A stretch of 64,000 nt of DNA from Candidatus Poseidoniaceae archaeon (GCA_038125145.1 JAYPDK010000001.1:4368-68367), one strand, 5' to 3'; counted from the first letter of the stretch, positions 3,639-55,480 are shown. The notes: generated by a model from the sequence alone, not told the origin. Made by a program: numbers and translations.

Positions 3639-3674
3639 GTCTCCGGTGGCCGACACGCTCGGGTGATGTTGATG

Positions 3675-3956
3675 GTGAAGATGCCCCGTCAGGTCAAGCG
3701 CTACAGCCCCTCTGCGGGCAAGCACACCCTCCACACCGTGGAGCGCGTCAAGAAGAAGCGCGCATCCGAACTTCGCTGGGGTCAGCGACGCTTCCGTAAG
3801 GTCACCGCTGGGTACCGCGGTTTCCCGCGTCCCAAGCCGGACGGTCGTGAAAAGCCAACCAAGCGCGTCAACATCCTCTACCGCTGCACCGAGACGGGCA
3901 AGGCCCATTACGCTCCGTGCCAGCGTGCGAAGAAATTCGAACTCGTGGACAAGTGA
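3675..3956 (+). CDS. rpl44e: 50S ribosomal protein L44e
   Basis: MKMPRQVKRYSPSAGKHTLHTVERVKKKRASELRWGQRRF...YRCTETGKAHY matches the L44e family. The GTG start at 3675 gives the canonical MKMPR N-terminus; the ORF track extends it to 3663. Confidence 0.85.
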   Translation: MKMPRQVKRYSPSAGKHTLHTVERVKKKRASELRWGQRRFRKVTAGYRGFPRPKPDGREKPTKRVNILYRCTETGKAHYAPCQRAKKFELVDK

Positions 3957-3966
3957 AGTGATCAAC

Positions 3967-4137
3967 ATGTCTGGCAATTTCATCAGCGTGGCCTGCCGGG
4001 ACTGCTCCACGGAGACCACCATTTTCGATCGCTCCGTGAACGTGATTTCCTGTGGTGTCTGTGGCGCCACCCTCACCCGACCCGCTGGCGGCAAGGCCAG
4101 CCTCGTCGGTTGCCGTATCGTTGACACCCATGAGTGA
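3967..4137 (+). CDS. rps27e: 30S ribosomal protein S27e
   Basis: MSGNFISVACRDCSTETTIFDRSVNVISCGVCGATLTRPAGGKASL, the C4 zinc-finger S27e signature. The start is at the internal ATG of ORF 3847-4137. Confidence 0.85.
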   Translation: MSGNFISVACRDCSTETTIFDRSVNVISCGVCGATLTRPAGGKASLVGCRIVDTHE

Positions 4138-4151
4138 GGGGGGCCGCGCGG

Positions 4152-4940
4152 ATGGCCGGCGGCTCTCAGGACGGACCCCAAGAGGGGGACCTCGTCGTGA
4201 CGACGGTGTCGACGGTCAAGCAGAACGGCTGCTACGTGACCTTCGATGAATTCCCCGACAAAGAGGGATTCATCTTCATTGGTGAAATCGCGAGCGGTTG
4301 GGTCCGAAACATCCGGGCGCATGTGCGTGAGGGACAGCGCCTGATCTGCAAAATCACGGGGATGCGGAGGGACGGAACGTCCTACGAATTGAGCCTGAAG
4401 TCCGTGTCAGAGGAGCGGCGGCGTGACCGACTTCAGATGTGGAAAAACGAGCAGCGCGCCGCTCAACTTTTGGCCGTGCTGGGCGAACAACTCGGCTGGT
4501 CCGAAGAACAGATCGACACGACGAGGACCGAATTGACGGATTCCTTTGGCACGCTCTATGGCGCCTTCGAGGAGGCGGCCACCAACGAGACGGCGATGTC
4601 CGAATCAGGTTTTGACGACCCCTGGGTTCCGGCGTTCGTCCAATCGGCCTTGGAAAACATCGTCCCAGCGTTCGTTGAAATCCGTGGCACGTTCACCATC
4701 ACCTTTGAGCAGCCAGACGGCATCGACCGCATCCAAACGGCCCTTCTCGCTGCAGAGGCCTGCACGGACAAGGAAGCAGAAATCGAGGTGATGTGCTTCT
4801 ACGACGGCGCTCCGAAGTACCGGATCGAGGTCAAAGCACCCGACTTCAGAAGTGCCGAGGATCTATGGGAGCAGGCCACCAGCGCCGCGCTCGAGAGCAT
4901 CACATCGCAGGGCGGCGAAGGCGAAGTGTGGAGGGAGTGA
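4152..4940 (+). CDS. eif2a: Translation initiation factor 2 alpha subunit (aIF2-alpha)
   Basis: S1 domain EGDLVVTTVSTVKQNGCYVTFDEFPDKEGFIFIGEIASGWVRNIRAHVREGQRLICKI, then the helical and C-terminal alpha/beta domains. An alternative GTG start at 4134 overlaps the S27e stop (GTGA). Confidence 0.85.
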   Translation: MAGGSQDGPQEGDLVVTTVSTVKQNGCYVTFDEFPDKEGFIFIGEIASGWVRNIRAHVREGQRLICKITGMRRDGTSYELSLKSVSEERRRDRLQMWKNEQRAAQLLAVLGEQLGWSEEQIDTTRTELTDSFGTLYGAFEEAATNETAMSESGFDDPWVPAFVQSALENIVPAFVEIRGTFTITFEQPDGIDRIQTALLAAEACTDKEAEIEVMCFYDGAPKYRIEVKAPDFRSAEDLWEQATSAALESITSQGGEGEVWRE

Positions 4941-5208: not shown

Positions 5209-5961
5209 ATGTGCGGCAGTATGTCGCTCAGCACCCATTGGGTATCGGAGGCTCGTCCGAAAGGAGGGCCCTGCTTCGTCGCCTTCCCAGGTGTTGGCGA
5301 CATCGGGTTGCTGGCGCTTTCGATGATCGAATCAAGCCTGCCCTCGTCGGTTGTGGCCGAACTGTTCGACCCTGCGCTTCCGCCGTTGGCGACCCTTGAC
5401 GAGCGTGGTGTGCTTCGTCCCCCTCACCACAGGCTGATGCGGGTGGACACCTCATCCGGCCCCGTCCATCTCTTGATTGGCGCTGGCCAAGCGAACACGC
5501 CCATCGATCAACACCGAACCGCCATGGACCTCGTTGAGGTGCTCCAAGGCTTCGATGAAGTGGTGGGCTTGGCGGGCTTCAAGAGCGGCGCCATGGACCG
5601 GCGTGCCTTCTTTGTCGCAACCTCTGCAGAGGGACTGTCCACCATGAAGGCTGCAGGGCGGCAGGTGAGCACAACGGAGCCGAGCGCCGGTTGCATTGGC
5701 GTTCTCGCCTTGCTGGCCTCCCTCGGACCGCACCAGGGCCTCCCCACCTCACTGGCCATCGCCACGACGTTGGGCGCGAGTCAAGACCGATTCGCTGCGC
5801 ATCGGCTTTTGGATCTGCTCGATGAGGCCTTTTCTCTTGGCCTGCCAGAACAACACGACATCGAAGCCGACCTGCGGGGACGACTCTCCGACCGTGCACC
5901 GGATCATGTCGAGAACCTCGTTGCCGAACTGGTGGAAGGTCCGGACGCGTTCTACGCGTAA
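5209..5961 (+). CDS. PAC2 (proteasome assembly chaperone 2) family protein, COG1938-like
   Basis: 250 aa with N-terminal GFPGVGDIGLLA motif and conserved archaeal synteny immediately downstream of nop10. The family assignment is by recollection, not a search. Confidence 0.5.
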   Translation: MCGSMSLSTHWVSEARPKGGPCFVAFPGVGDIGLLALSMIESSLPSSVVAELFDPALPPLATLDERGVLRPPHHRLMRVDTSSGPVHLLIGAGQANTPIDQHRTAMDLVEVLQGFDEVVGLAGFKSGAMDRRAFFVATSAEGLSTMKAAGRQVSTTEPSAGCIGVLALLASLGPHQGLPTSLAIATTLGASQDRFAAHRLLDLLDEAFSLGLPEQHDIEADLRGRLSDRAPDHVENLVAELVEGPDAFYA

Positions 5962-6045
5962 GGCGCCGAGAGAGGGATTCGAACCCCCGCGTCTGACGAC
6001 AGTGGATTTCGAATCCACCGCACTACCGGGCTATGCGATCTCGGC
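5962..6045 (-). tRNA. tRNA-Ser (anticodon CGA), type II with long variable arm; the 3' CCA is not fully encoded
   Basis: Reverse complement reads GCCGAGATCGCATAGCCCGGTAGTGCGGTGGATTCGAAATCCACTGTCGTCAGACGCGGGGGTTCGAATCCCTCTCTCGGCGCC. The acceptor stem is GCCGAGA/TCTCGGC, the anticodon loop is TTCGAAA (CGA), the T-arm is GGGGGTTCGAATCCCTC, and the discriminator is G followed by CC. Confidence 0.75.
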
Positions 6046-6098
6046 CTGCTCCGAGGCCGAGGCATCACGGTCATAAGCATGATGCAGCAGGCTGCAAC

Positions 6099-6299
6099 GT
6101 GCTGGTTACCCTCACGTTGACGGAAGGGCAACGGCTGGTCGACGTCGAGGAAGGTGCCTCGATCCGCGACGTCCTGCTGCGCGCCGACCTCGCACCTAGC
6201 CTCCACATCGTTGACCACGAAGGGCAGGTGCTGCCGATGAGCACCGTCCTGAACGCGGAGGTGCACCTGACCGTGACCCGGACGGCCTCAGGCGGCTGA
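6099..6299 (+). CDS. Beta-grasp ThiS/MoaD/SAMP-like small protein (about 66 aa) ending in Gly-Gly
   Basis: GTG-initiated MLVTLTLTEGQRLVDVEEGASIRDVLLRADLAPSLHIVDHEGQVLPMSTVLNAEVHLTVTRTASGG then stop. The size, beta-grasp-like pattern and C-terminal GG fit ubiquitin-like sulfur carriers or SAMPs. The longer ORF 6033-6299 has an implausible R/H-rich N-terminus. Confidence 0.55.
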   Translation: MLVTLTLTEGQRLVDVEEGASIRDVLLRADLAPSLHIVDHEGQVLPMSTVLNAEVHLTVTRTASGG

Positions 6300-8123
6300 A
6301 GCGTCCGACGCTCGGGCAAGGACCCGAATGTCAGACCCGTCCTGCAGGCTGCCCTGCAGGTCGCTGATCCAAGCTCCTGCTTCGAGGTTCGTGATGGCGA
6401 CGACGTCTCCCGCCTCGAGGTGATCGTACTGACGCGGCATCGCATTGCCCCAGCCGTCGACTTTCATGGTCCCCGTCTCGTCCATGACGACCAGGCCTGG
6501 TCGTCGCCAAGGCTTTCCATACTGGCTGACTCCAGATTTCTCGTACAGGTACGCAACCCTGCCGACCACATCGACACGGGCAGGACGGCTGAGGGCGAGC
6601 GAGGTCAACGGCTCGTCCTCGACCACGGTCACAGCCGAAGCGGGGTCCACCTTCAGCACAAGCTTGCCACCGCGCCAGAGTTGCGGAAGTGCTCCCACAA
6701 CCCGAACACGTTGACCCTTCTGCAGGTTCAGGTCGACAGCGTCCGGTACGTGCCGACCAGCCACTTGGAGTTCGGCCTGATGTTGGCCGTCGGTGAGCAC
6801 GACCTTGGGGGGGCCACTTGCACCTGAAAACACCGAATTCACGTCGAGGACAGCCTCCACACGTGGGTCGATGGTGCCCAACTTCTCGACCGTCGTCACC
6901 ACCGACTTTCCAGGCAACTGGAACGATGTTGGGAGGTCAGCGAACGACCCATCGGGGCCAGGACACACGCTGGACCACTCGCAGCGAACGCAGCGGGCCC
7001 GTGGGTCGTCGTCCGGCCCAACGGGCGCCCCGCCGGGCGCATGATGCAGGTACGGCGCAGGAGCAGGTGGGCACGCCTCCTCACGTGGCTCCTCCGCCTT
7101 GAGTTGGCTCCATAACGCATCGATGGATGCTTCAAACGCATCGCACCACGCGTCGTCGGGCACCTCAACGTCCACCGTGGTGCCGGTTCCGAGGAACCAG
7201 ATGCTCAACTGAGCGGGACGTCGCCGGTCGTCATGGGTGGCCCTCCAAAGGGCAGCGTACGCCCTCAACTGCTCATGGTACCCCGCCGTTCGGTCCGAGG
7301 CACCGGTTGACGCTTTGAGGTCCACGATGTGCACCTCTCCGCGCCACCGGTACACGAGGTCGTATTCACCTTGAAAGCGGAAGGACGGATGAACGGCTTG
7401 GGACACGAAGGATGCCGCACTGGGGTCCACAAACCATGGACGGCAAACCTCCCACGCTTCAAGCACGTCAACCGCACCCGTGATGGCCAGAGGGTGTGGC
7501 CCACCCAAGATGGCAGCTCGGCCGTCCGGTGCGGGGATCGTCGGACGGTGCCCGGCCCGCCATGCCTCGAGGGACGCACCACCCCCCTCCGCAAGGCATG
7601 CAGCCACTTCCTCGAGGTGAAGGTCAATCGCACGCTGCGCCATGGAAAGGGCGCGTCGAGGATCGATGACCGAGGACCAATCACCAGTTCTTCGTTCGTG
7701 CTTCGACCATGCAGCGTGCTCTTCGTCAAGGGCGGCCGGAAGGTGGACGTCCAGCCGTGCGTACGCCCATGCACGAAGGTCGTCGAGGTCATCGGGCCGA
7801 CTGAGCAGCAGCGGCAAGGCGTCTGCTGGCCATCCGTCGTGGACTGAGAGGTCCGGACGGCCGTCCTCGTCCAGAGGCGTGCCGTCAAGGATCGTCCCTG
7901 GCGCGTTTCGCACGACGCAGCCCGGCGACTCTCGGAGGGTTTTGCAGACGGCCAATTCGACGGCTTTTCCAAGATGAAGCGGCGGCGTCTGCGCGATCTT
8001 GAGGCGCCTGACCTTTTCGAGGAACCATTGACGGGGGCAGGCGTTCCACACGTTCAATTGGCTTGCAGAGAGCCTCCGATAGGGCCCTACCGTATCGTCC
8101 CCATCAGGGTGAAAGACAGGCAT
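6288..8123 (-). CDS. RecB/Cas4-family PD-(D/E)XK nuclease with 4-Cys Fe-S motif fused to two C-terminal OB folds (paralog A)
   Basis: N-terminal SASQLNVWNACPRQWF (first Cys). Nuclease motifs GEYDLVYRW (motif II), HIVDLKASTG (motif III, DYK-like) and EQLRAYAALW (QhxxY). C-terminal CVRCEWSSVC (C-x2-C-x5-C). Two OB-fold-like segments follow (about residues 400-500 and 510-600). No Walker A. Confidence 0.7.
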   Translation of the reverse strand: MPVFHPDGDDTVGPYRRLSASQLNVWNACPRQWFLEKVRRLKIAQTPPLHLGKAVELAVCKTLRESPGCVVRNAPGTILDGTPLDEDGRPDLSVHDGWPADALPLLLSRPDDLDDLRAWAYARLDVHLPAALDEEHAAWSKHERRTGDWSSVIDPRRALSMAQRAIDLHLEEVAACLAEGGGASLEAWRAGHRPTIPAPDGRAAILGGPHPLAITGAVDVLEAWEVCRPWFVDPSAASFVSQAVHPSFRFQGEYDLVYRWRGEVHIVDLKASTGASDRTAGYHEQLRAYAALWRATHDDRRRPAQLSIWFLGTGTTVDVEVPDDAWCDAFEASIDALWSQLKAEEPREEACPPAPAPYLHHAPGGAPVGPDDDPRARCVRCEWSSVCPGPDGSFADLPTSFQLPGKSVVTTVEKLGTIDPRVEAVLDVNSVFSGASGPPKVVLTDGQHQAELQVAGRHVPDAVDLNLQKGQRVRVVGALPQLWRGGKLVLKVDPASAVTVVEDEPLTSLALSRPARVDVVGRVAYLYEKSGVSQYGKPWRRPGLVVMDETGTMKVDGWGNAMPRQYDHLEAGDVVAITNLEAGAWISDLQGSLQDGSDIRVLARASDASAA

Positions 8124-8165
8124 ACCGGGTGAACCCGGCGCGGACCCTCTTGAACCTCACGTTGT

Positions 8166-9869
8166 CTATAGAACGAATTCCACCCGGGTCGACCGCGTGT
8201 CGATCCGAAGTTGAGGCAGGCCTTCACGCCAACCGAGTTCTGCACCGGTCAAGGCGAGGCTGTCACCGGGCCGAAGGGACAGCAAACGGTCGGTGAGGCT
8301 CCCGCCGAACATCGCCACTTCGATGACATGATGGCCGTCCCACAGGTGGAGGGTGGACATCGCCCAGGGACGTCCGTCGAGCCTGTTCCCGCTGTTGCGT
8401 CGGATGGAAAGCACCTTGCCACGGACGTTGGCTCGCGTCCGAAGCATGCCAAGCCGGGTCGTGTGCACCTCAGGGTCATCGTGGTGAATCGACGTCCCTG
8501 CGTCCGCATACAGCCGTGGTCCGCCCCGCCAGGCACCCGGCAACGCTCCACGAACGAGCACATCGCCGGCGGGGTGGTCATGCAAGGCCGGGGCTTGCCC
8601 AGGCTCGACCTCCTCGATTGGAACCACGGCTCGCCCGCTCGTCAGCGCTGCACCGATGACCGATTCGCCGAAATGGTTGGGCATCGGCCCCCAGTGGCCG
8701 TCGAGCCGTCCTCGAACGTTCACGCGACTCGGAATGGCGGCCAGCGGTTCGTAGGGAGGCGCAGGAGGCGGGACCTCCGTCCGTGTTCCAAGACGGTCCT
8801 CCAACAACCGGACCAGGCCAGCCTCGGTCGCCAGGGCACAGGACCTGCACGTGCTCTTTCGGCATCCCCCTTCGACGGGCAGCGGCAGGGCCACTGGACC
8901 TTCGGAAACCCTCTGGCTCATCGCCTCCGCGATGGCGCGAAGGTCCGCCGTTGCTGCGTCATGGTCCGGAAAAGGCTCCACCGCTTTTCTCCACCCACCG
9001 TCGAGGTACCATCCTTCCAAGCCGTCGGGCGTTGTTCCAAAGCACGACGTCCACAGCCAGCCGTAGAAGCGCATCTGGTCGTCGAGGCTTGGACCGTACG
9101 GCCCACCCCCGTCTCCGGATTTGATGTCCACGAGACGAAGACGGCCGTCCCAGCGCAACACCAGGTCCAATTCGCCCGCCGCCCAACCTTCTGGGTGGAA
9201 CATTCGTTGCGGTTGAAGCACCCGCGGGTCCTTCACCCAAGGCCGGACGATTTCCCATGCTTCAGCAGCATCAACGGGTTCGCTTTGCGATTTCCAACCG
9301 TCAAAGCCGGGAAGCACCGGGGGTTCGAGGTGAGCAGGCCAGCGATCGGGCAACGGATGGGAGGCAGCAGCCCCGTTGCAAGGCGCTGGAACCTCATGGA
9401 CCTGCTCGCCGCGTCGGAACGCCTGAAGGTGCGGACCACCGCCTTCTGCGATGCAGGCTTCCACCTCCTCCAGCAGCAGGTTCACCGCACATCCAAGCCT
9501 GTGTCGGAGGTCTTCTTCATGGAACGGCCATGGCTCGCCCACCTCACCCCTCCGCCAAGGCTCCTCGGCCCATCGTCGTGCGCCCTCTTCGTGCACAACG
9601 GTTGCTTCGTGCTCAACTTCCCTTGCCAACCATGACGTCAGACCGAGAAGGTCGAGGCCTGCAGGAGCATGACGCATCACGAGGCGCACGACGCCCTCCT
9701 CGAGCACGTGGCCAAGCACCTGTGAGGCTGAGGTTGGAGACCCCAAACCCACTTCGCGTGTGAGGCGCCATTCCGTCGTGCACCGTTGCCACGTGCTGTA
9801 CCCCGAGCCTGAAAGGCGACGACGCGACCGCCCGAGCGGCCCGCCGACCGGTGGCGTCGTCACGGGCAT
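8166..9869 (-). CDS. Paralogous RecB/Cas4-family Fe-S PD-(D/E)XK nuclease with two OB folds (paralog B)
   Basis: SGYSTWQRCTTEW (first Cys). GELDLVLRW, LRLVDIKSGDG, DDQMRFYGWLW. Cys triad CRKSTCRSC. Shares the motif EEVEACIAEGGG with paralog A (EEVAACLAEGGG). Two C-terminal OB-like segments. The ATG is at 9867-9869, 39 nt after the ABCE1 stop; the ORF track start at 9911 is a TTG. Confidence 0.7.
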   Translation of the reverse strand: MPVTTPPVGGPLGRSRRRLSGSGYSTWQRCTTEWRLTREVGLGSPTSASQVLGHVLEEGVVRLVMRHAPAGLDLLGLTSWLAREVEHEATVVHEEGARRWAEEPWRRGEVGEPWPFHEEDLRHRLGCAVNLLLEEVEACIAEGGGPHLQAFRRGEQVHEVPAPCNGAAASHPLPDRWPAHLEPPVLPGFDGWKSQSEPVDAAEAWEIVRPWVKDPRVLQPQRMFHPEGWAAGELDLVLRWDGRLRLVDIKSGDGGGPYGPSLDDQMRFYGWLWTSCFGTTPDGLEGWYLDGGWRKAVEPFPDHDAATADLRAIAEAMSQRVSEGPVALPLPVEGGCRKSTCRSCALATEAGLVRLLEDRLGTRTEVPPPAPPYEPLAAIPSRVNVRGRLDGHWGPMPNHFGESVIGAALTSGRAVVPIEEVEPGQAPALHDHPAGDVLVRGALPGAWRGGPRLYADAGTSIHHDDPEVHTTRLGMLRTRANVRGKVLSIRRNSGNRLDGRPWAMSTLHLWDGHHVIEVAMFGGSLTDRLLSLRPGDSLALTGAELGWREGLPQLRIDTRSTRVEFVL

Positions 9870-9907: not shown

Positions 9908-11683
9908 TCAAGACTGGTAGGAATAGAAGTCCCCGGCCGTTCGCTGTTCGCGGTCCTTGCGGCTGTCGGCCTTGTTGATGCGCGGACGTTTGGACTCGTG
10001 ATCACGACGGAAGGTGATGTCCACGCTCGACAAGAAGCGGTTCATGCCTACCCTAAGGTCAAACGGTCCGGCCGCTTCACCGTGTCGACCACCTTCGCCT
10101 TCGAAGACAAGCAACGAATCGCTCACGATGTCGATGAAGTACACATCGTGATCGATGACGAAGGCGGCTTTTTCGTTGGATTCCATCGTTCGTCGAATGG
10201 CCTTCGCTGCTTCCATGCGAGCGTTGGCGTCCAAATGGGCGCTCGGTTCATCGAGCAGGTACAGGTCGGCCTCACGCCCGAGGCAGACGGCGATAGCAAC
10301 GCATTGCCGCTCACCACCAGAAAGCCGCTTCACTCGTTTCGGAAGCAGTTGATCGATGCCGAGGGCTCGGATGACGTTCACGTTGAATTCACCGCTCCTC
10401 CATCGAGGGCCAAGTTCGCTGTCGAGCCAGAGCTGCACCGTACCATCGATGTCCAAGTCAAGGTGTTGTGGCTTATAGGAAATCTTGGCGTCGCCCGAGA
10501 CCCATCCCGCATCGTATTCATGCTCGCCGGCGAGGATTTTGATCATCGTGGATTTCCCGGTCCCGTTCGGCCCAACCACGCCGACCACTTCGGCACGGTG
10601 AACGGCACCTTTGCCCGCCTTTAGGCTGAAATCACCCAATTTCTTCTCCAGCTCGCCCCATTCGACCACTTGCGCACCGGTTTCGACCTTCCGGTCGCGG
10701 TGCCCAAGGAACGTGATTGGCTTCTGACGAATGCGCACGTTTTGTTCGGGGAGAAAGCCGTCAAGGTAGGCGTTGATCGCGGTGCGGGTGGCGCGTGCGG
10801 GAGTGAAGATTCCAAACGCACCCTTTGTGCCGTAGACGATGTGGACCAAGTCAGCAAGGACGTCCAACACGGCGAGGTCGTGCTCGATGACGATCACCCT
10901 GCGGTCCTCAGCGAGGCGTTGCACAATGCGGACAATGCGCAAGCGTTCGTGAATGTCGAGGTACGAGGAGGGTTCGTCGAGGAAGTACACGTCAGCGTCC
11001 CTCAGCAAGGTGGCCGCCAGGGCCATGCGCTGCAGTTCACCGCCAGACAGTTGCCCAATCTCTCGCTCCATCAGGTGATCGATGCCGAGGTCCCGCGTCA
11101 GTTGGTCGCAGAGGTCTCGTTCGTCGACTTTGCGGAGCAGGGCTCCGACCTTTCCCTGAACCCGCTGAGGAAGGCGGTCAACGTTCTGTGGTTTCACGGC
11201 CACGGTGATGCGGCCTTCCTTGACTTCCGTCAGGAAATCACGGAGTTCACCACGGGGCAGGCTGTGCAGCACTGCGTCCCAATCGGCCTCACCTCGGAAA
11301 TCACCAAGGTTCGGAACAAGCCGTCCGGACAGCGCGTTGAAGGCGGTGGATTTACCCATGCCGTTGGGACCAAGGATCCCGACCACCTGGTCCTTTGACG
11401 GCGTAGGGAGGCGAAACAACCTGAATCCGTTTTGCGAGTATCGATGGATCATGTCGGTTTCGAGCTCTTCGGGCAACTGCTCGATGATGAGGGCATCATG
11501 CGGGCATTTGTTGATGCATATGCCGCAACCGATGCAGAGGCTTTCAGAGATGTGGGGTTTGCCCGTGCGGGCATCCATAATGATACATTCTTGCCCGTTT
11601 CGAACAGGGGGGCAATAGGTGTGGCACTCATCGTTGCACTTCTTTGGTTGGCAACTGTCCTCACGAAGAACAGCGACGCGCAT
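9908..11683 (-). CDS. abcE1: Ribosome recycling ATPase ABCE1 (RNase L inhibitor homolog)
   Basis: N-terminal double 4Fe-4S ferredoxin (CIGCGICINKCP), two ABC domains (GILGPNGMGKST, GVVGPNGTGKST; LSGGELQR). Confidence 0.9.
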   Translation of the reverse strand: MRVAVLREDSCQPKKCNDECHTYCPPVRNGQECIIMDARTGKPHISESLCIGCGICINKCPHDALIIEQLPEELETDMIHRYSQNGFRLFRLPTPSKDQVVGILGPNGMGKSTAFNALSGRLVPNLGDFRGEADWDAVLHSLPRGELRDFLTEVKEGRITVAVKPQNVDRLPQRVQGKVGALLRKVDERDLCDQLTRDLGIDHLMEREIGQLSGGELQRMALAATLLRDADVYFLDEPSSYLDIHERLRIVRIVQRLAEDRRVIVIEHDLAVLDVLADLVHIVYGTKGAFGIFTPARATRTAINAYLDGFLPEQNVRIRQKPITFLGHRDRKVETGAQVVEWGELEKKLGDFSLKAGKGAVHRAEVVGVVGPNGTGKSTMIKILAGEHEYDAGWVSGDAKISYKPQHLDLDIDGTVQLWLDSELGPRWRSGEFNVNVIRALGIDQLLPKRVKRLSGGERQCVAIAVCLGREADLYLLDEPSAHLDANARMEAAKAIRRTMESNEKAAFVIDHDVYFIDIVSDSLLVFEGEGGRHGEAAGPFDLRVGMNRFLSSVDITFRRDHESKRPRINKADSRKDREQRTAGDFYSYQS

Positions 11684-12399: not shown

Positions 12400-13584
12400 A
12401 TGGCGAGCCGCTTCTCCTCCCTCTTGGAGCAGGAGTCGGAGCACCAATGGCTGGCCATCGGCCTCTTCGCGCTATTCGCCCTCGCCGGTGGCTGGGCCAT
12501 CAACGCCAGCAGCGACCTTTCTGGCGTCGGACTCGCCTCCATGGACGCCGCATGGACGCAGGAAGACCTGCTCGACGTGGCGCTTGTGGAGGGAAGTTGG
12601 TCGAACGCTCACGTCGGCCTTGTGGACACCGATACGGGCCAGCGAATTTACCGGCAAACAGGAGCCGAAGCCTCCGAATTCAAACTCCTCGACGCGAGCG
12701 AGCGACCCTCACGCCTCTTGCCGCAGGACGATGGCAGCGTCTGGTGGGACGCGGCCGCTGGAGAAGTGCGGGGCGTGGCCAGCGACGGCCAGCGCATGAC
12801 AGCCATCACAGGCTTGGACGACGAGCGGGTGCTTGACCTCCTCGTGATCGATGAACAGGGCGTCTATGGAATCCTCCTGTACCGTTCAGGTACGTCCACT
12901 GGTGTTGTGGCCTTCGATGGACTTGATGGCAACTTCAGCAGCCTGAGCGCGCCTGAAGGCGTCACCTGGACCGACCTCGAGATGACCGACTCCGGCCAGG
13001 TGCTGGCCGCGGGATGGCGCATGTTGGAGGGAAGCAACCCCGCCACACCAGACGTGGTCAGCGTGGTTTCCTTCCTCTCGAACGATGCTGGAACGCTGAC
13101 GCTTGACGTCGCGAGCGTCGATGGGCCCAAGGGGTACCTCCACACGCTGCTCCCCAGAAACGCAGAGGAGGTGGTCCTCGCCACCCGCCAAGGAACGATG
13201 CTTCTCGACAGCAGCGGTTCCCGCACCTTCCTGAACGTGCCCTCCCTTGCGGCGGCCATTGACGCCGAGGGGAAGGTATGGTTGATCGGGGCTGCGGACG
13301 GCACCACGGTGGTGGTGTGGGATGGAACAGGGACGGACGTGCGAAGCATGCCCACGCCGCTGGGAATTCAGGTTGAGGTAAGCACGAGCACCACCTCCAC
13401 ATGGCTGTTGTTCGGTCCAGACAAGGACGGTACGCTTCAGGGAATAGAGATCGACATGAGCATTGAGGCGTCGGTGTTGAGCGGACGAGGTTTCCTGAAC
13501 ATGCTTTTCCTGCTCGTGGGCGTTATCTCGCTCGCCGGTGTTGGCGCATCATGGTGGGCCGAGGCCCGAAGGTCGCTCGATTGA
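12400..13584 (+). CDS. Hypothetical membrane-anchored protein (N- and C-terminal TM helices, Thr/Gly/Asp-rich ectodomain)
   Basis: 394 aa ORF. TM at WLAIGLFALFALAGGWAI and a C-terminal FLNMLFLLVGVISLAGVGASWW. No recognizable catalytic motif. Confidence 0.45.
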   Translation: MASRFSSLLEQESEHQWLAIGLFALFALAGGWAINASSDLSGVGLASMDAAWTQEDLLDVALVEGSWSNAHVGLVDTDTGQRIYRQTGAEASEFKLLDASERPSRLLPQDDGSVWWDAAAGEVRGVASDGQRMTAITGLDDERVLDLLVIDEQGVYGILLYRSGTSTGVVAFDGLDGNFSSLSAPEGVTWTDLEMTDSGQVLAAGWRMLEGSNPATPDVVSVVSFLSNDAGTLTLDVASVDGPKGYLHTLLPRNAEEVVLATRQGTMLLDSSGSRTFLNVPSLAAAIDAEGKVWLIGAADGTTVVVWDGTGTDVRSMPTPLGIQVEVSTSTTSTWLLFGPDKDGTLQGIEIDMSIEASVLSGRGFLNMLFLLVGVISLAGVGASWWAEARRSLD

Positions 13585-13652
13585 CAGCATTGCCTTCGCC
13601 ACCTTCATGTGCCCTCGTCGAGGTGTACGAAGCCTGTGCGTGGTGGAGTTCG

Positions 13653-16286
13653 ATGGCGAAGCGGACGATGATGGAGCAGCACGCCGAGATCAAGGCGGCG
13701 CATCCACAGTCGATCCTCTTCTTTCGCATGGGGGATTTCTACGAGCTCTTCCACGAGGACGCCCACGTAGGCGCAGAGGTGCTTGGACTGACCTTGACCG
13801 CGCGGGACAAGTCTTCCGGCACCCCCATCCCCATGGCCGGCTTTCCATGGCACCAGCTCGAAGAACAGGTGCGGACGATGCTGTCCTCCGGAAGGACCGT
13901 GGCCGTGGCTGAGCAAGAAGACGAACTTCGAGAGGGTGCGACCTTGCTCGAACGTGTCGTCACCCGGGTGTACACTCCGGGCTCGTTGTACGAGGAGGGG
14001 TTGCTGCAGGACGAGCGCGCGAGCCTGTTGGCCGGCGTGGTTGAACGCGAAGGTTTCGTCGGCCTTTGCCTGCTGGACGCTGCGGCCTCCACTGCAACGT
14101 GCATGCAATACGACGGTGAGGAACGGTGGTCGATGTTGACCGATGAACTGCTTCGATGGTCGCCATCGGAGGTTGTCCTTCGCCCCAGCCTCGCCGGGAC
14201 GGATCCCTTCCTCCGCCTCATCGCCGAACTCCGCGGCGTGGTGGTGTCGCAGCACGATGGACGCCGAAAACGGGGGCGTGAACGGCTCATGCGTGCCCTC
14301 GGCGTTGCCGATCTTGGCCACCTGGACCTCGATGGAGCTGAGATCGCCCTCGACGCGGCAGGCCTGGCCACCGACTACCTCTCCACGGTGCTGCATGCTG
14401 AGGTTGAATTGGCGGACCTCGAAGTCGCTCATCAGCACGGCGCGATGGTGCTCGACAGAACCACATTGAGGAACCTTGAGATCACGCAAACCTTAGCGGG
14501 CGAGCACGAAGGCTCCCTTGTCGCCGCAGTGGGACGTTGCCGCACCGCCATGGGACGCCGACGCCTTCGCGCGTGGCTTCTCCGTCCGTTGACCGACCTC
14601 AACGCGATTCATGCTCGACAGGACGCTGTCGCGTCCCTCAGCCGTTCCTCCCGCCGCTTGGATGGCGTCCGAACCGCCCTCACCGGCATGCGGGACCTTG
14701 AGCGCTTGGCCACGCTGGCCGGGCACGGGCGAGCCAACGCAAGGGACCTCATGGCGACAGGGCTTGCTTTGGACCGATTGCCCGCACTTCAGCGGGCCTG
14801 TGAGGAGACCGATGACGCATTGCTCAACGCATTGGGGGAAGGCCTTGACGGCCTTTCGGCGTTGGCCGACAGGATTGCACGAACGCTGGTCGATGCACCC
14901 CCTCTCTCCGTCCGAGAAGGCGGGCTGCTTCGCGAAGGAGTGCACGATGAGGTGGACCGCCTCCGAAGCATCGCTGACGAAGGAACGGCATGGTTCGAAG
15001 CCTACGAAGAACGACTCCGACGCGACCTTGAGATTCCAAGCCTCAAGGTGAGGCAAAACCGTCAGATTGGCTGGTTCATCGAGGTGACCAACACCCACCT
15101 CGACAAAGTTCCAGAGGACTTCCATCGCAAGCAACAGATGACCAATGGCCATCGATTCATCACCTCGGACCTCGTCGAGCGTGATCAAGCCCTCTTGAAC
15201 GCCGTCACGCGTTCAAGGGCGTTGGAATACGACGTGTTCGTCGACCTACGCAGAACCGTGGCTGAGCACGCTCGAACACTGGCGAACCTTGCAGGCCGGG
15301 TGGCATGCATTGACGTGCTCCATGGTTTTGCCGTGGTGGCGCGGGAACGAAGGTGGTGCAGACCTGTTGTTCACGAAGGAGACGACCTGGTGCTTGAGGC
15401 CGCACGGCACCCCGTGCTCGAGCGTGAACCGGGCTTCGTGCCAAACAACCTGCGGTTCGACCGCAAACGACGCTTCCTGCTCATCACTGGACCGAACATG
15501 GGTGGGAAATCGACGTACCTTCGCACGGCGGCCTTGGTGACCCTTTTGGCGCAATGCGGCAGTTTTGTCCCGTGCGATCGAGCGAAGGTGGGACTCGTCG
15601 ACCGCGTCTTCACCCGCGTTGGTGCGAGCGATGACCTGCTACGAGGTCGTTCGACCTTCATGATGGAGATGATCGAAGTCGCGCACATCCTTCGGCATGC
15701 TTCGCCATCCTCACTGGTCCTGCTGGACGAGATTGGACGGGGCACGTCGACGTTTGATGGGCTCTCGATTGCATGGGCGGTGACCGAGGACATCGCAAAG
15801 CGAATCGGGGCGAGGACCTTGTTCGCGACACACTACCACCAACTCATCGGACTTGAGGACGACGTGCACGGCGTCGTGAACGTCTCTGTTGGGGTGTCGG
15901 AAGCCGATGAAGGGCTCCGGTTCTTGCACACCGTCAGCGACGGACCGTGCGACGAATCCTACGGGGTCCGCGTCGCGGCCTTGGCCGGCCTTCCACGTGA
16001 CGTGGTCGAGCGGGCCAGCGACCTGCTGCGCTTCCTCGAGGGTCAGGCCACCGGCGCTCGGGCTGGTGTTCAAGGTCAACCAAGCAGGCGTGCACAAGGA
16101 CAGGCCAGCCTGTTGACCTACCTCGGAGCGAGCCGGCCAGCAAGCGTGCCGACTCCGCGCCCACCCCACGAGGAAGACGTGCTGGCGAGGTTGCAGGAGG
16201 TGGATCCTGACGACCTGAGCCCTCGGGAGGCCGCAGCTGTCTTGCGAGCGCTTGTGGAACGCAGCCGAGGTGAACGTGATGGTTGA
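13653..16286 (+). CDS. mutS: DNA mismatch repair protein MutS (bacterial MutS1 type)
   Basis: HPQSILFFRMGDFYELFHEDA mismatch-binding domain. Walker A in ITGPNMGGKSTYLR. C-terminal HTH region. The start is at the internal Met MAKRTMMEQ. Confidence 0.85.
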   Translation: MAKRTMMEQHAEIKAAHPQSILFFRMGDFYELFHEDAHVGAEVLGLTLTARDKSSGTPIPMAGFPWHQLEEQVRTMLSSGRTVAVAEQEDELREGATLLERVVTRVYTPGSLYEEGLLQDERASLLAGVVEREGFVGLCLLDAAASTATCMQYDGEERWSMLTDELLRWSPSEVVLRPSLAGTDPFLRLIAELRGVVVSQHDGRRKRGRERLMRALGVADLGHLDLDGAEIALDAAGLATDYLSTVLHAEVELADLEVAHQHGAMVLDRTTLRNLEITQTLAGEHEGSLVAAVGRCRTAMGRRRLRAWLLRPLTDLNAIHARQDAVASLSRSSRRLDGVRTALTGMRDLERLATLAGHGRANARDLMATGLALDRLPALQRACEETDDALLNALGEGLDGLSALADRIARTLVDAPPLSVREGGLLREGVHDEVDRLRSIADEGTAWFEAYEERLRRDLEIPSLKVRQNRQIGWFIEVTNTHLDKVPEDFHRKQQMTNGHRFITSDLVERDQALLNAVTRSRALEYDVFVDLRRTVAEHARTLANLAGRVACIDVLHGFAVVARERRWCRPVVHEGDDLVLEAARHPVLEREPGFVPNNLRFDRKRRFLLITGPNMGGKSTYLRTAALVTLLAQCGSFVPCDRAKVGLVDRVFTRVGASDDLLRGRSTFMMEMIEVAHILRHASPSSLVLLDEIGRGTSTFDGLSIAWAVTEDIAKRIGARTLFATHYHQLIGLEDDVHGVVNVSVGVSEADEGLRFLHTVSDGPCDESYGVRVAALAGLPRDVVERASDLLRFLEGQATGARAGVQGQPSRRAQGQASLLTYLGASRPASVPTPRPPHEEDVLARLQEVDPDDLSPREAAAVLRALVERSRGERDG

Positions 16287-18186
16287 GCGGTCACGCATCG
16301 TTCAACTCGACGAGTTGACGATTGGGCACATCGCTGCCGGCGAGGTTGTTGAACGGCCGGCTCAGGTCGTGAAGGAACTGGTCGAGAACAGCATCGATGC
16401 CGGCGCCTCCAGCATTGAGGTACGCATCGAACGCGGTGGGTTCGACATGATTCGCGTGGAGGACGATGGTCACGGCATCCTCCCGGAGGACCTCAGCCTC
16501 GCCCTCGACCGCCACGCCACGTCCAAACTTGCACGAAAGGAGGACTTGGCCGCCATCCATACGATGGGCTTCCGCGGCGAGGCCCTGGCATCCATTGGGG
16601 TGGTGAGCCACCTCACCCTCACCAGCCGCTGTGAAGGCATGGAGGGGGCTGAGGTCCGCATGCAGGAAGGCAAGCGAAGCCACGTCGAGGCCCGAGGTCG
16701 TGGACGAGGTACCACCGTGACCGTCGAGCGCCTCTTCGCGAACGTCCCCGCCAGGCTCGCGTTTCAGCGCCGGCCCCAGACCGAACACGCGCGTATCGTT
16801 GACGTGGTGGTGGACCACGCGATGGCACACCACGCTGTTGGATTCCGACTCGAGTTGGACGGTCGAGTCGCCCTTGATGTTCCTCCCGTTGACATGGTGG
16901 AAGACCGGTTGCACGACCTCTTGGGGCAGCGCGCTGGTGAATTGCTTCCGCTCCGCCCCCCTCCCGACGACGAAGCGGCACCAGGAGAGGAGCGATGGAC
17001 TGGATGGATCAGCGCACCAGACATCACGCGTGGTAAGGCCGATGACGTTCACGTGCTTGTGAACGGTCGCCCGGTGGCGGCAGGACCCTTCCTCCAAGCC
17101 GTTCGACGGGGCTACCGAACCCGGCTTATGGTCGGCCGGCATCCTGTCGCGGTGCTTCACCTCAACCTGCCCGCAGAGGAAGTGGACGTCAACGTCCATC
17201 CAACCAAGCGTGAGGTCCGCTTGCGTCACGCATGGCGCGTGCTCGAACGCCTCGAGCGTTCCGTGGCCCACACGCTTCAATCCGTGGCCACCAAACCGGA
17301 AAGCGCTGGAGCCATCCCGGAGTTGTCCGGGCTTGACTCGGTTCGTCAAGAGGTCCTCTCGGTCGATGTCGAACCGTCTGCTCCTCCTCCAGCCTGGGCG
17401 CAAGCCGCGGGCGTGGGTCGGATCGTCGAACCCCCAATCACATCGCCCCGAGAGAACATACCGTCCACGCCTCCACAGGCCACCCTCCCTGGATTGGACG
17501 CTGACCCTGTTGCACCGGCCCTTTCGGAAGCCGAAAGGGACCTCCATCGGCACGCAGGCGATGGAGCGTGTGGACCAACAGAGGAAGCGGCCTTGGAAGG
17601 TCAACTGAACGACCTTCCACCAATGGAGCCCCTCGGTCAATTCGCTGGAACGTACATGCTCGTGGAAGCAGGAGAAGAATTGCTTCTCATCGACCAGCAC
17701 GCGCTTCATGAACGGATTCGATACGAACGGCTGCGCCATGACGATGCGTTGTGGGAGGGCCAGCGGCGCCTCATCCCCATACCGCTCGACCTTGATGCAC
17801 GCACCGTCGAACGTGTCCATGCGGGGGCCGAACGGCTGCGAGGCATCGGATTTGAATTGGACCTCATCGATGACACGTGGAGCATCACGGCAGCACCGCG
17901 CTTGCTTGGTGACGACGCCGGCGCTTTCCTTCTTGACCTCCTTCAGGACGTCGACGAAGACGGGGCACCGCTCGAAACCGTCGAGCGCCGGCGTGATCAT
18001 CTCGCGTTCATGACCGCATGCAGGGGAGCGGTGAAGGCGAATCAACCGCTGACGCGTGCGGAAATGCGACGTTTGTTGGAGGACATGCGGCGCATTCCGA
18101 ACCCATGGGCCTGCGTTCATGGGCGACCAACGGCGCTCCGCCTCGACCGGCACGCCCTCGACCTGCATTTTGGTCGTGAGGGCTGA
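16279..18186 (+). CDS. mutL: DNA mismatch repair protein MutL
   Basis: GHKL ATPase motifs (ELVENSIDAGAS, DDGHGI, GFRGEALASI) and a C-terminal dimerization/endonuclease region. Overlaps the mutS stop by 8 nt. Confidence 0.85.
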   Translation: MVERSRIVQLDELTIGHIAAGEVVERPAQVVKELVENSIDAGASSIEVRIERGGFDMIRVEDDGHGILPEDLSLALDRHATSKLARKEDLAAIHTMGFRGEALASIGVVSHLTLTSRCEGMEGAEVRMQEGKRSHVEARGRGRGTTVTVERLFANVPARLAFQRRPQTEHARIVDVVVDHAMAHHAVGFRLELDGRVALDVPPVDMVEDRLHDLLGQRAGELLPLRPPPDDEAAPGEERWTGWISAPDITRGKADDVHVLVNGRPVAAGPFLQAVRRGYRTRLMVGRHPVAVLHLNLPAEEVDVNVHPTKREVRLRHAWRVLERLERSVAHTLQSVATKPESAGAIPELSGLDSVRQEVLSVDVEPSAPPPAWAQAAGVGRIVEPPITSPRENIPSTPPQATLPGLDADPVAPALSEAERDLHRHAGDGACGPTEEAALEGQLNDLPPMEPLGQFAGTYMLVEAGEELLLIDQHALHERIRYERLRHDDALWEGQRRLIPIPLDLDARTVERVHAGAERLRGIGFELDLIDDTWSITAAPRLLGDDAGAFLLDLLQDVDEDGAPLETVERRRDHLAFMTACRGAVKANQPLTRAEMRRLLEDMRRIPNPWACVHGRPTALRLDRHALDLHFGREG

Positions 18187-24464: not shown

Positions 24465-24548
24465 AGGTCGTCAGTCGGCCGTTGAACGGTCGTGTTTGGT
24501 GCGAATCCCCATATACCCACAGGCGTGGAATTGGAACGGGTTGAAGCA

Positions 24549-26408
24549 ATGGTGGACGCCGCGGCCATGCTCGAGGAACTCTATCGGGCGAAGCTCGACG
24601 ACCTGCGGTCGATTGCAGCGGCGTATGACCTGCCACGGACGGGCGGCGTGGATCTGCTTCGCGCCCGCCTCATTCGAGACTTGGTGCTCGGGGATTGGGA
24701 CCTGAGCGATGAGGGTCTTGCAAACCTCAAAAACGTGGAATTAGGGGACCTCCTCGAAGTGTTTGGGATCAAGAAAACGGGCTCCATCCGAGCACGCCGT
24801 CAGCGCCTGTACCTTCACCTGAACCACGACGCGAAGGGGCTCTCTGTGGAAGTGCTGGAAGAAGCGACCAAGGACGACCTCCAAACCTTGGCACGCGCGC
24901 TCGACCTGCAAGTCTCCGGCTCCAAACAACTGCTCCAGTCCCGCATCGCGGGGGTCCTCGAAATGCAGCGTGGCGCATGGGGGCCAATCAAGCGGGCCCT
25001 CCGAAGGGAGGGTGGCGCGACAGGCATCTCGGTACCGCAGCCCGAAGGCGCACCGCTTCGAGAGGAAACATCGGAACAGCACCAGCAGCCCGAGGACGCT
25101 CAGGTGGATGTTGTGGACCCCATCGAAGCAGCGACAGAGGACGACGCAGACGACGAGCCCCCTGCGTCGACCACCAGCGACGTTGGACGGGCTGTGGAGG
25201 CCTTCGCGGACGCGCACCCAGACGGGTGGACCGACGGCGAAGAAACAGAACTTCGAATGACGCTCCAATCCCAGGGCGTCGACGTCACGCGGGGTGACGT
25301 GGCCGCTGAATTGGACGATGCCTTGAGGGAGTTCGCCGTCAGCCCTCCTGCCCTCGAGGAACTCCCCCCTGAGCCGATGCCCGAGGAACCGACGGCCTTG
25401 ACCCTTGACGAGCGGGCGGACCTTGACGACCTCGACCGGCGCACTGCAGAGGTTGAGGCGTCCTGCAGGCACTACCTCAGCATTGGCAGCATCCACGACA
25501 CCGCGGACGTCGATGCCTTCCTCGATCACCTCGTTCAACAAGGGTTTGATACAACGAAACATCACGTCCGCCAAGCCATCATCGTACGGCTTCACGACGT
25601 TGACCGTCGACGAGCCGACGAGGAACTCGCCCAGCGTGACCGGCCCTCCACGTGGCGTGGCCGGGAAGCCGTTCGGGCCTTCGAACACCAGCGCCCGATG
25701 CTGCTCGAAGCCGTCGACGCCGCGACCATGGAGGGCGACAGCCCAGAGGCTCGCTCAGCCTACCTCACCGCTGCCACCAACCTTGGACTGGACCTCTCTG
25801 AACCTGCAGTGTCTGGACGAGTTCACGCCCTCTACGACCTGCATGTGGAACTGCTCGCAGAACGTGCCTCAATGGACCCTGTCGCCTCACGACGCCAAAG
25901 CGCGCTGCGCGTGCTCTTCCACGGAAGCGTTCACCTTGACGTGGCCGCGCGACGGACCTTGGAGCGCTTGGAACGGGGCCTTCCTGCCTTCGAAGACCTC
26001 GTCGCTGCTGTGCTGGACGATTCGACCGGACGCATCGAGCCCGGTCATGAAGCCCTCATCATGACGTACCTTGAGCGACGAGGGCTTGAGGTCAACACAG
26101 CCGACCTTCGGCCTCGCGTGATGGCTTGTGCTGGGGTGCTCGCAGCAGAGATGGGGCTCATTTCGCTCTCAGAAATCCCACGGCTTGCTCCAGGCCTCCG
26201 GGTGTCGGACGACCAAATTGACGACATTGTTCACGAGTTGCAGAGCCTCGCCGCCTCCTTCCGCGTCCCAGTTGGGCGCGATGAAGACCCCGAAGACGCC
26301 TCCACGCCCCCTGCTGCGCGCGACGGTCGAGATCGGCGCGTGGACGGCGCCAAAGCCATGGTGGACCGTGCCGATGCGGTCCTCTCTCGCATGCTCGAAG
26401 AGCGCTGA
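24549..26408 (+). CDS. Hypothetical acidic protein with three N-terminal SAP-like helix-extended loop-helix repeats
   Basis: Three repeats: LYRAKLDDLRSIAAAYDLPRTGGVDLLRARLIRDL, LKNVELGDLLEVFGIKKTGSIRARRQRLYLHL, and LEEATKDDLQTLARALDLQVSGSKQLLQSRIAGVL. The remainder is acidic/helical. The ATG is at 24549; the ORF track start at 24492 is a GTG. Confidence 0.5.
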   Translation: MVDAAAMLEELYRAKLDDLRSIAAAYDLPRTGGVDLLRARLIRDLVLGDWDLSDEGLANLKNVELGDLLEVFGIKKTGSIRARRQRLYLHLNHDAKGLSVEVLEEATKDDLQTLARALDLQVSGSKQLLQSRIAGVLEMQRGAWGPIKRALRREGGATGISVPQPEGAPLREETSEQHQQPEDAQVDVVDPIEAATEDDADDEPPASTTSDVGRAVEAFADAHPDGWTDGEETELRMTLQSQGVDVTRGDVAAELDDALREFAVSPPALEELPPEPMPEEPTALTLDERADLDDLDRRTAEVEASCRHYLSIGSIHDTADVDAFLDHLVQQGFDTTKHHVRQAIIVRLHDVDRRRADEELAQRDRPSTWRGREAVRAFEHQRPMLLEAVDAATMEGDSPEARSAYLTAATNLGLDLSEPAVSGRVHALYDLHVELLAERASMDPVASRRQSALRVLFHGSVHLDVAARRTLERLERGLPAFEDLVAAVLDDSTGRIEPGHEALIMTYLERRGLEVNTADLRPRVMACAGVLAAEMGLISLSEIPRLAPGLRVSDDQIDDIVHELQSLAASFRVPVGRDEDPEDASTPPAARDGRDRRVDGAKAMVDRADAVLSRMLEER

Positions 26409-38163: not shown

Positions 38164-38246
38164 GTCCGGAATGCATGGTCGAGGGGACAAAAGGACTGTG
38201 CCTCGCACGGCGACATCCTCAAACCTCAGCCCCACCGGTGCAGTTC

Positions 38247-44482: not shown

Positions 44483-49226
<4,744 letters not shown>

Positions 49227-55392: not shown

Positions 55393-55480
55393 GTCCACAA
55401 CCACCGAATCGCCACACTGCGACGACATCAAGACCTCCCCGAGTATGGTATTTAAGCGTGGGCAGGCCACGCGTCACGGC

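Follow-up and report, generated by a model that had tools for sequence, protein, structure and literature searches.

Several well-described nucleases resemble the proteins studied here. Eukaryotic Dna2 combines its nuclease domain with a C-terminal SF1B helicase that contains Walker A and B motifs, and RPA acts in trans. AddAB and AdnAB, the end-resection enzymes of bacteria, are heterodimers of neighboring paralogs; both subunits contain a RecB-type nuclease domain, and the enzymes have UvrD/Rep-like motors. Exonuclease 5 and MGME1 are motor-less ssDNA exonucleases of the Fe-S type or a related PD-(D/E)XK type, which are encoded by single genes and do not contain fused OB folds. Poseidoniales (Marine Group II) are among the most abundant archaea of the surface ocean; they are uncultured, and knowledge of their DNA metabolism comes from annotation alone. 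We analyzed two adjacent genes, B and A, in a stretch of 64,000 nucleotides from a Candidatus Poseidoniaceae archaeon (GCA_038125145.1, JAYPDK010000001.1:4368-68367; the window). The pair represents a distinct architecture, a Dna2-like Fe-S-type nuclease that has RPA built in, lacks a motor, and is duplicated. An earlier interpretation made from the DNA alone, termed the sequence-only reading below, had regarded this architecture as undescribed. In agreement with this, no match to it was found among named families, solved structures or papers, and the literature on Poseidoniales/Marine Group II nucleases and DNA repair, on Cas4-like/OB-fold proteins and on archaeal Dna2-like proteins yielded no prior description.

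The gene pair and its distribution in Poseidoniales

The two ORFs were found on the minus strand, where the sequence-only reading had placed a tandem pair of paralogs (Table 1). The proteins can be aligned end to end with 26% identity (E 2e-29), which confirmed the paralogy, and the predicted spacing of 42 nt between the genes was also correct. For A the proposed length of 611 aa was retained. For B, the proposed 581 aa resulted from extending the ORF upstream as far as a TTG at 9911, while the start at a conserved MPV yields 567 aa. The two products have masses of about 62 and 66 kDa and are moderately acidic. In current annotations, members of the pair are only called 'PD-(D/E)XK nuclease family protein' or 'hypothetical'.

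Table 1. Features of the ABCE1-B-A locus (window coordinates)
Feature	Position	Strand	Remarks
ABCE1/RLI, directly upstream of B, co-directional	9908..11683	-	identified from its translated sequence; Pfam Fer4_RLI and ABC_tran on orthologs
Gene B, first of the pair	8166..9869	-	567 aa; Fe-S-type PD-(D/E)XK nuclease and two OB folds
B nuclease domain, residues ~1-375	8745..9869	-	
B Cys30, candidate N-terminal Fe-S ligand	9780..9782	-	121/121 conserved
B catalytic motifs II and III, E233, D235 ... D248-I-K250	9120..9173	-	121/121 conserved
B QhxxY motif, Q265...Y269	9063..9077	-	121/121 conserved
B C336-x4-C341-x2-C344, triad with non-canonical spacing	8838..8864	-	121/121 conserved; regex check
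B tandem OB1 and OB2, residues ~376-567	8169..8744	-	
Gene A, second of the pair	6288..8123	-	611 aa, ATG start; same architecture as paralog B
A nuclease domain, residues ~1-395	6939..8123	-	Pfam match residues 17-388; model secondary structure
A Cys29, candidate N-terminal Fe-S ligand	8037..8039	-	121/121 conserved
A catalytic motifs II and III, E253, D255 ... D268-L-K270	7314..7367	-	121/121 conserved; regex check
A QhxxY motif, Q285...Y289	7257..7271	-	121/121 conserved
A C378-x2-C381-x5-C387, canonical Cas4/AddB/Dna2 triad	6963..6992	-	121/121 conserved; regex check
A linker and OB1, residues ~396-505	6609..6938	-	model beta-barrel strands 422-500; Foldseek tandem-OB matches
A OB2, residues ~506-611	6291..6608	-	homologous to archaeal RPA DNA-binding domain

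A genome scan retrieved 469 matching stretches, and synteny was counted on the best 80 loci at the species level. All 80 lie on contigs of Poseidoniales; the record of one carries the name of a bacterial MAG. B was followed directly by A in 80/80 loci, with a median gap of 43 nt. The sequence-only reading had asked whether the pair always follows ABCE1 or a beta-grasp gene, and ABCE1 was located directly upstream of B in every one of these loci that included upstream sequence. The median gap between ABCE1 and B was 39 nt, typically 6-66 nt, and the order ABCE1, B, A with gaps of 6-66 nt was observed in about 65 loci. Two divergent loci, L081 and L084, retain the triad despite altered outer genes: in both, a gene other than L10e precedes ABCE1, and in L084 the downstream gene also differs from that in the window. 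The three genes are probably co-transcribed, with ABCE1 representing context, not a proven functional partner. Housekeeping genes surround the pair in the window and in orthologous loci (L10e, ABCE1, eIF2a, S27e, L44e, PAC2, PurF, and MutS/MutL), and a convergent ORF downstream of the pair encodes a beta-grasp-like protein ending in GG. The pair is thus a core feature of Poseidoniales with a fixed position. However, synteny within one order may stem from shared ancestry and not from function.

A and B each form their own orthologous family across Poseidoniales, and together with bacterial single-OB proteins they make up three separate clades. Apart from this rare bacterial sister clade, which is labelled Planctomycetes, the family is restricted to Poseidoniales. 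The bacterial relatives are single genes with one OB fold, so that the fold as such does not entail pairing. They are found in unrelated contexts in organisms without ABCE1. The dN/dS values of 0.075 for A and 0.13 for B indicate purifying selection. The loci examined gave no sign of a patchy distribution. Because the two proteins belong to separate orthologous families with such low dN/dS values, they are ancient paralogs. The idea that one gene is a pseudogene or a decayed duplicate was rejected on these grounds and by the invariance of key residues in all 121 members of each family (see below).

Nuclease domains and OB-fold modules

Both proteins matched the Pfam profile PDDEXK_1 (PF12705), A with 68.1 bits (E 1.4e-18) and B with 33.7 bits (E 4.8e-8), and both scores were above the cut-off of 22 bits. 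All motifs quoted in the sequence-only reading were present in A and B, respectively: EEVAACLAEGGG / EEVEACIAEGGG, motif II (GEYDLVYRW / GELDLVLRW), motif III (IVDLKA / LVDIKS), QhxxY (QLRAY / QMRFY), and the cysteine triad (CVRCEWSSVC / CRKSTCRSC). Only the spacing in the N-terminal cysteine motif had to be corrected from x4 to x5, i.e. to S-x-[LY]-x5-C. In both families, the catalytic residues and the four cysteines are conserved without exception (121/121 members each). This result does not support the earlier suggestion that one paralog is catalytic and the other structural, and the idea of B as an inactive structural paralog was rejected. Judging from the conserved cysteines, both proteins would be expected to bind an Fe-S cluster.

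AF2 models of A and B were obtained with pLDDT values of 92 and 89.3 and pTM values of 0.89 and 0.88, respectively. The nuclease domains are similar in fold to solved members of the Fe-S RecB-Cas4-AddB-Dna2 class, and 285 residues of the A domain could be aligned to Dna2 in a structure comparison. In the predicted structure of A, a large helical insert (residues ~40-245) lies between the helix with the N-terminal cysteine and the catalytic core. The structural neighbors were all DNA enzymes, namely Dna2, AdnAB, ACE1, Exo5, Cas4, and MGME1. Pfam matches, invariant motifs and fold together support the proposed assignment of A and B to the Fe-S-type RecB/Cas4/Dna2 class of PD-(D/E)XK nucleases. 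A motif search with regular expressions did not find Walker A in either protein, and neither had a Pfam match to a helicase, as the sequence-only reading had anticipated.

The proposed fusion of each nuclease to two RPA-like OB folds is supported by the models, by Foldseek and by a profile match. With Foldseek, the tandem OB module matched RPA70 DBD-A/B (E 1e-8 to 1e-7), Teb1 (AB), and POT1. OB2 matched Pyrococcus abyssi RPA (Rpa1 OB-1) by sequence profile (E 5.6e-7). In the window the OB module of B has a pI of 9.9 versus 5.4 for A, but the family medians are 8.6 and 6.3 with a wide overlap, so that a basic B module is a tendency only. Charge asymmetry was therefore set aside as a basis for argument.

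Proposed function and alternatives

On balance we favor, with moderate confidence, a role of A and B as a motor-less, probably heteromeric nuclease for ssDNA ends or flaps in replication or recombination. The substrate would be DNA and not RNA, presumably with a specificity for single-stranded ends. An RPA-type tandem OB module, rigidly attached at the C-terminus of each nuclease, would capture single-stranded DNA and deliver a free end or flap into an Fe-S-buttressed, metal-dependent active site, composed of E253/D255/D268/K270/Q285/Y289 in A and of E233/D235/D248/K250/Q265/Y269 in B. This would be similar to Dna2 with RPA in trans, but with the RPA function built in and without a helicase domain. 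Unwinding would be provided by another protein, or it might not be required. B and A would act jointly as a two-nuclease heteromer, analogous to the nuclease pair of AdnA/AdnB or AddA/AddB. The A-B heteromer seems the most likely arrangement because the two genes invariably occur together, side by side at close spacing, and both encode catalytically intact proteins. We infer heteromer formation and the cellular pathway; the process would be housekeeping ssDNA-end processing, i.e. long-flap/Okazaki processing, fork repair, or end resection at double-strand breaks. If true, the pair would represent a helicase-independent solution to flap and end processing and a compact model for the guidance of a Dna2/Exo5-type nuclease by RPA-type OB folds. 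The bacterial relatives, single genes with a single OB fold, are a naturally occurring minimal version with which the pair can be compared.

Alternatively, A and B could be two independent nucleases that do not form a complex and are adjacent only through tandem duplication, having become sub-functionalised, for example for 5' versus 3' polarity or for replication versus repair. The single genes of the bacterial relatives agree with this, as do the different cysteine spacings (CX2CX5C in A, CX4CX2C in B), the different charges of the OB modules and the finding that no A-B fusion protein occurs among the best 150 of 788 profile matches. However, adjacency, order and short spacing have been retained in all 80 loci despite an identity of only about 26%, which is typical of co-expressed subunits, and we regard independent action as possible but rather doubtful. 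The defense module suggested by the sequence-only reading, i.e. a Cas4-family effector pair against viruses or plasmids comparable to ACE1 with Argonaute or to DruK in Druantia, fared worse and is most improbable. The pair occupies the same chromosomal position among housekeeping genes in 80/80 loci, under strong purifying selection and without patchy occurrence among the loci examined. No cas, Argonaute, Druantia or other defense genes were found in the annotated neighborhoods (Pfam-scanned ORFs of the window, called genes of L081 and L084), and no relatives were found in viral contigs or phage genomes. With the NCBIfam cas4 model (TIGR00372, cut-off 65), A scored 16.3 bits and B did not match. 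PADLOC models (Druantia DruK, Cas4, Aga Cas4-like) matched only in part, along some 100 residues of the catalytic core and with E 7e-7 or weaker, and no partner genes of these systems were nearby.

The constant presence of ABCE1 requires separate consideration, since this sole conserved operon partner is a translation factor, which is easier to reconcile with a role related to RNA than with DNA repair. A translation-linked nuclease co-transcribed with ABCE1 would act on RNA, e.g. on mRNA or rRNA that becomes free or accessible as stalled ribosomes are split by ABCE1, and its OB folds would bind ssRNA. The short gaps within the triad, its persistence in L081 and L084, and the translational neighbors L10e, eIF2a, S27e, and L44e speak for this. 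Against it, the structural neighbors of the nuclease domain are all DNA enzymes, OB2 is homologous to an RPA DNA-binding domain and not to S1/cold-shock RNA binders, and the bacterial relatives occur in unrelated contexts and in organisms without ABCE1. Furthermore, clusters of replication genes with translation genes (L44E-S27E-aIF2alpha-Nop10) are known from archaea and do not imply a common biochemical function (PMC2643942). An RNA-directed role is thus unlikely. A narrower version, in which the conserved order reflects functional coupling and the pair is a ribosome-rescue nuclease degrading exposed nucleic acid, most likely mRNA, is in line with the ABCE1 linkage staying where genes outside the triad change; but structural and sequence relatives again all point to DNA, and we consider it distinctly unlikely. 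Were it true, the Fe-S Cas4/Dna2 class would gain its first member directed at RNA, and the pair would become a candidate for the archaeal no-go-decay nuclease. Conversely, the proximity of L44e, S27e, and eIF2a was rejected as support for replication and is weak context only, because that cluster runs convergently to the pair, with PAC2 and a tRNA in between.

Comparison with described systems

The nuclease domain of eukaryotic Dna2 (PDB 5EAN) is alike in fold, but its identity to A and B is only 11-14%. In contrast to Dna2, A and B have neither helicase domains nor Walker A, they carry C-terminal tandem RPA-like OB folds that provide the RPA function in cis, and their genes are duplicated into a pair. 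With AddAB and AdnAB (nuclease domains; PDB 9NP6, 6PPU), A and B share the organization as adjacent paralogs with RecB-type nucleases. However, A and B are archaeal, they have OB folds in place of the motor and no ATPase motifs, and their heterodimer is putative. Compared with Cas4, solo-Cas4 and ACE1 (PF12705, PF01930), the helical insert of about 200 residues makes the nuclease domain about twice as large as Cas4, and A and B are fused to OB folds and lack a cas or Argonaute context; a phylogenomic survey of Cas4 does not mention an OB fusion (PMC5704561). Sequence similarity to Exonuclease 5 and MGME1 was undetectable by HMMER, and both differ from the pair in being single genes without OB folds. 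OB2 is homologous in sequence to archaeal RPA (P. abyssi Rpa1 OB-1), and the tandem arrangement is like that of RPA70 DBD-A/B. With the NCBIfam RPA equivalogs A and B reached 15-17 bits versus cut-offs of 442-1147 and hence are not orthologs of RPA; in contrast to archaeal RPA, their OB module is appended to a nuclease.

Two paralogous nucleases with tandem OB folds

Genes A and B encode paralogous proteins, as the sequence-only reading had claimed, and these align over their full length with 26% identity (E 2e-29). Both also pass the Pfam PDDEXK_1 cut-off of 22 bits (A 68.1 bits, B 33.7 bits), which supports their assignment to the PD-(D/E)XK nucleases, and the statement that ATPase motifs are missing was borne out, as a Walker A motif was found in neither protein. 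All of the motifs quoted in that reading were recovered, but the N-terminal motif has the form S-x-[LY]-x5-C instead of x4. The length of 611 aa was correct for A, whereas that of B had to be revised. Extension of the B ORF as far as the TTG at 9911 yields the 581 aa reported earlier; we placed the start at 9869, resulting in 567 aa, because both families retain the N-terminus MPV.... An antisense ORF of 474 aa within gene B (8211..9635, plus strand) was not counted as a gene, because such ORFs are typical of high-G+C coding regions. The G+C content is about 63% across the whole window, and the pair does not form a compositional island.

Residue conservation was counted over 121 sequences for each family. 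The catalytic residues E-x-D, D-x-K and Q-x3-Y were retained in 121/121 sequences of both, contradicting the proposal that one paralog is catalytic and the other structural. Equally invariant were the four cysteines of A (C29 and C378-x2-C381-x5-C387) and of B (C30 and C336-x4-C341-x2-C344). Apart from these four putative cluster ligands, the helical insert contains an additional conserved cysteine pair, which could form a disulfide or act as a second metal contact. At column 61 of B, the counterpart of A C60, a cysteine is present in 113 of the 121 sequences and a valine in the B protein of the window.

Confident AlphaFold2 models were obtained for A (pLDDT 92.0, pTM 0.89) and B (pLDDT 89.3, pTM 0.88), and they share one layout. 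An N-terminal helix with the first cysteine is followed by a helical insert (about 200 residues), which holds the family-specific EEVxxC..GGP and EAWExxRPW blocks, and then by the alpha/beta catalytic core, the cysteine triad and two five-stranded beta-barrels. Using Foldseek, both barrels together aligned to tandem OB modules, e.g. RPA70 DBD-A/B (E about 1e-8). The second OB fold also matched OB-1 of P. abyssi RPA by sequence, with E values of 0.0016 for the single sequence and 5.6e-7 for the family profile. These results agree with the earlier prediction of two OB folds per protein.

Distribution and synteny of the pair

A and B belong to separate orthologous families of about 606-617 aa and 567-591 aa, respectively, with source names from Poseidoniales / Marine Group II. 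Existing annotations are restricted to "PD-(D/E)XK nuclease family protein", "hypothetical" and, occasionally, "Cas4 (RecB family)". When each GTDB species was scanned through one genome, 469 matching stretches were obtained, and the best 80 loci were all on Poseidoniales contigs, with the MG-II chromosome record CM001443.1 among them. Of these 80, L009 (CAXRAI010000016.1) is filed as "Salinimicrobium sp.", a Bacteroidota MAG; it bears the full Poseidoniales synteny MutS-L10e-ABCE1-B-A-PAC2-eIF2a-PurF with 62% identity, and almost certainly represents an archaeal contig that was placed in the wrong bin. In comparison with the closest locus, L001, dN/dS values were 0.075 for A, 0.13 for B and 0.017 for ABCE1; neither A nor B is a decaying duplicate.

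In 80/80 loci, B was located immediately upstream of A, and in every locus whose contig extends far enough ABCE1 directly precedes B. The spacers are 42 nt (B-A) and 38 nt (ABCE1-B) in the window, and across the loci the medians were 43 nt (typically 16-61) and 39 nt (typically 6-66). The order ABCE1>B>A was also kept in two divergent loci, L081 (on a 3.0 Mb contig) and L084, although the genes flanking these three are not those of the window: in both, a gene other than L10e precedes ABCE1, and the downstream gene differs as well in L084.

A profile of both families was compared with 1.84 billion cluster representatives and gave only 788 matches at E<=1e-3, while 202 matches reached E<=1e-10; fragments made up the majority of the best 150 of the 788. 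These low numbers indicate that the family is narrow and isolated in sequence. The only distinct relatives were about 25 clusters of bacterial proteins of about 430-477 aa (loci L082 and L083; proteins P0311, P0319, P0337 and P0430-P0450), which have the same nuclease and cysteine pattern and one OB fold. Their genes are solo and in chromosomal contexts, one record/MAG being labelled Planctomycetes, and a Peptidase_M28 gene was nearby in L082 and L083, the two loci for which genes were called. The existence of this bacterial sister clade suggests that transfer between domains took place in the marine water column. In a neighbour-joining tree, A, B and the bacterial proteins formed three clades.

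Genomic neighbourhood

Features of the window (coordinates in the window; strands relative to it)
Feature	Position	Strand	Remarks
L44e, S27e, eIF2alpha	3663..4940	plus	order of the archaeal "LSIN" cluster
PAC2	5209..5961	plus	after L44e-S27e-eIF2alpha
tRNA-Ser (anticodon CGA)	5962..6045	minus	directly downstream of gene A
Small ORF	6033..6299	plus	convergent with A, 12-nt overlap of A's stop; C-terminal ...TASGG, then stop
Gene A	6288..8123	minus	611 aa
A C176	~7596..7598		Cys in 120/121
A C60	~7944..7946		Cys in 120/121
Gene B	8166..9869	minus	567 aa
B C139	~9453..9455		Cys in 121/121
ABCE1	9908..11683	minus	co-directional with B and A
MutS	13551..16286	plus	bacterial-type; all five MutS domains
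MutL	16252..18186	plus	directly after MutS; HATPase_c_3, DNA_mis_repair, MutL_C
MoaA	19600..20622	plus	
638-aa protein	24492..26408	plus	sole match a SAP DNA-binding motif; unrelated to the pair
Hel308/Hjm-like helicase	35587..38235	minus	DEAD and archaeal helicase domain 4
DNA gyrase A and B genes	44483..47221 and 47211..49160	minus	
1425-aa protein	51193..55470	minus	rich in PKD domains; probably a surface protein; unrelated to the pair

The pair is surrounded by housekeeping genes, with L10e and ABCE1 upstream and tRNA-Ser, a small GG-terminated beta-grasp-like ORF, PAC2, eIF2alpha, S27e, L44e and PurF downstream. The small ORF resembles beta-grasp ubiquitin-like proteins of the ThiS/MoaD/SAMP type, had no Pfam match at E<=0.01, and probably starts internally (VLVTLTL...). 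A mechanically called ORF (5952..6266, minus strand) overlaps the tRNA gene and is probably not a gene. The LSIN-type cluster, which in other archaea often adjoins PCNA, PriS and GINS (PMC2643942), is convergent with the ABCE1-B-A unit. MutS and MutL are located about 3.5 kb upstream of the pair on the opposite strand, and the position of MutS is kept in orthologous loci.

Proposed function of the pair

The molecular identity of A and B as two motor-less Fe-S-type nucleases of the Cas4/AddB/Dna2 class, predicted to be catalytically competent and each carrying tandem OB folds of the RPA type, is well supported. The alternative of a defence module is at odds with the constant location of the pair among housekeeping genes and with the absence of relatives on mobile elements or in the viral contigs and phage genomes searched. 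The annotated ORFs of the neighbourhood included no cas or defence genes, and PADLOC returned only partial DruK and Cas4 matches over the catalytic core. The operon-like linkage to ABCE1 leaves room for a role in RNA metabolism or ribosome rescue, which we nevertheless regard as unlikely because all homology of A and B points to DNA enzymes. The linkage may have come about by chance in the history of the gene order; clustering of replication genes with translation genes is known from archaea (PMC2643942).

For the DNA nuclease reading, Dna2 and Exo5 offer a guide, both being ssDNA-end nucleases directed by RPA. By analogy, the fused OB pair would most likely bind ssDNA and pass its end, or a flap, on to the active site. 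If a motor works with the nucleases in trans, Hel308 is one candidate. The strict retention of both genes, their adjacency and tight spacing, and the two intact active sites suggest that A and B may form a two-nuclease heteromer, for which the nuclease halves of AdnAB / AddAB provide the analogue.
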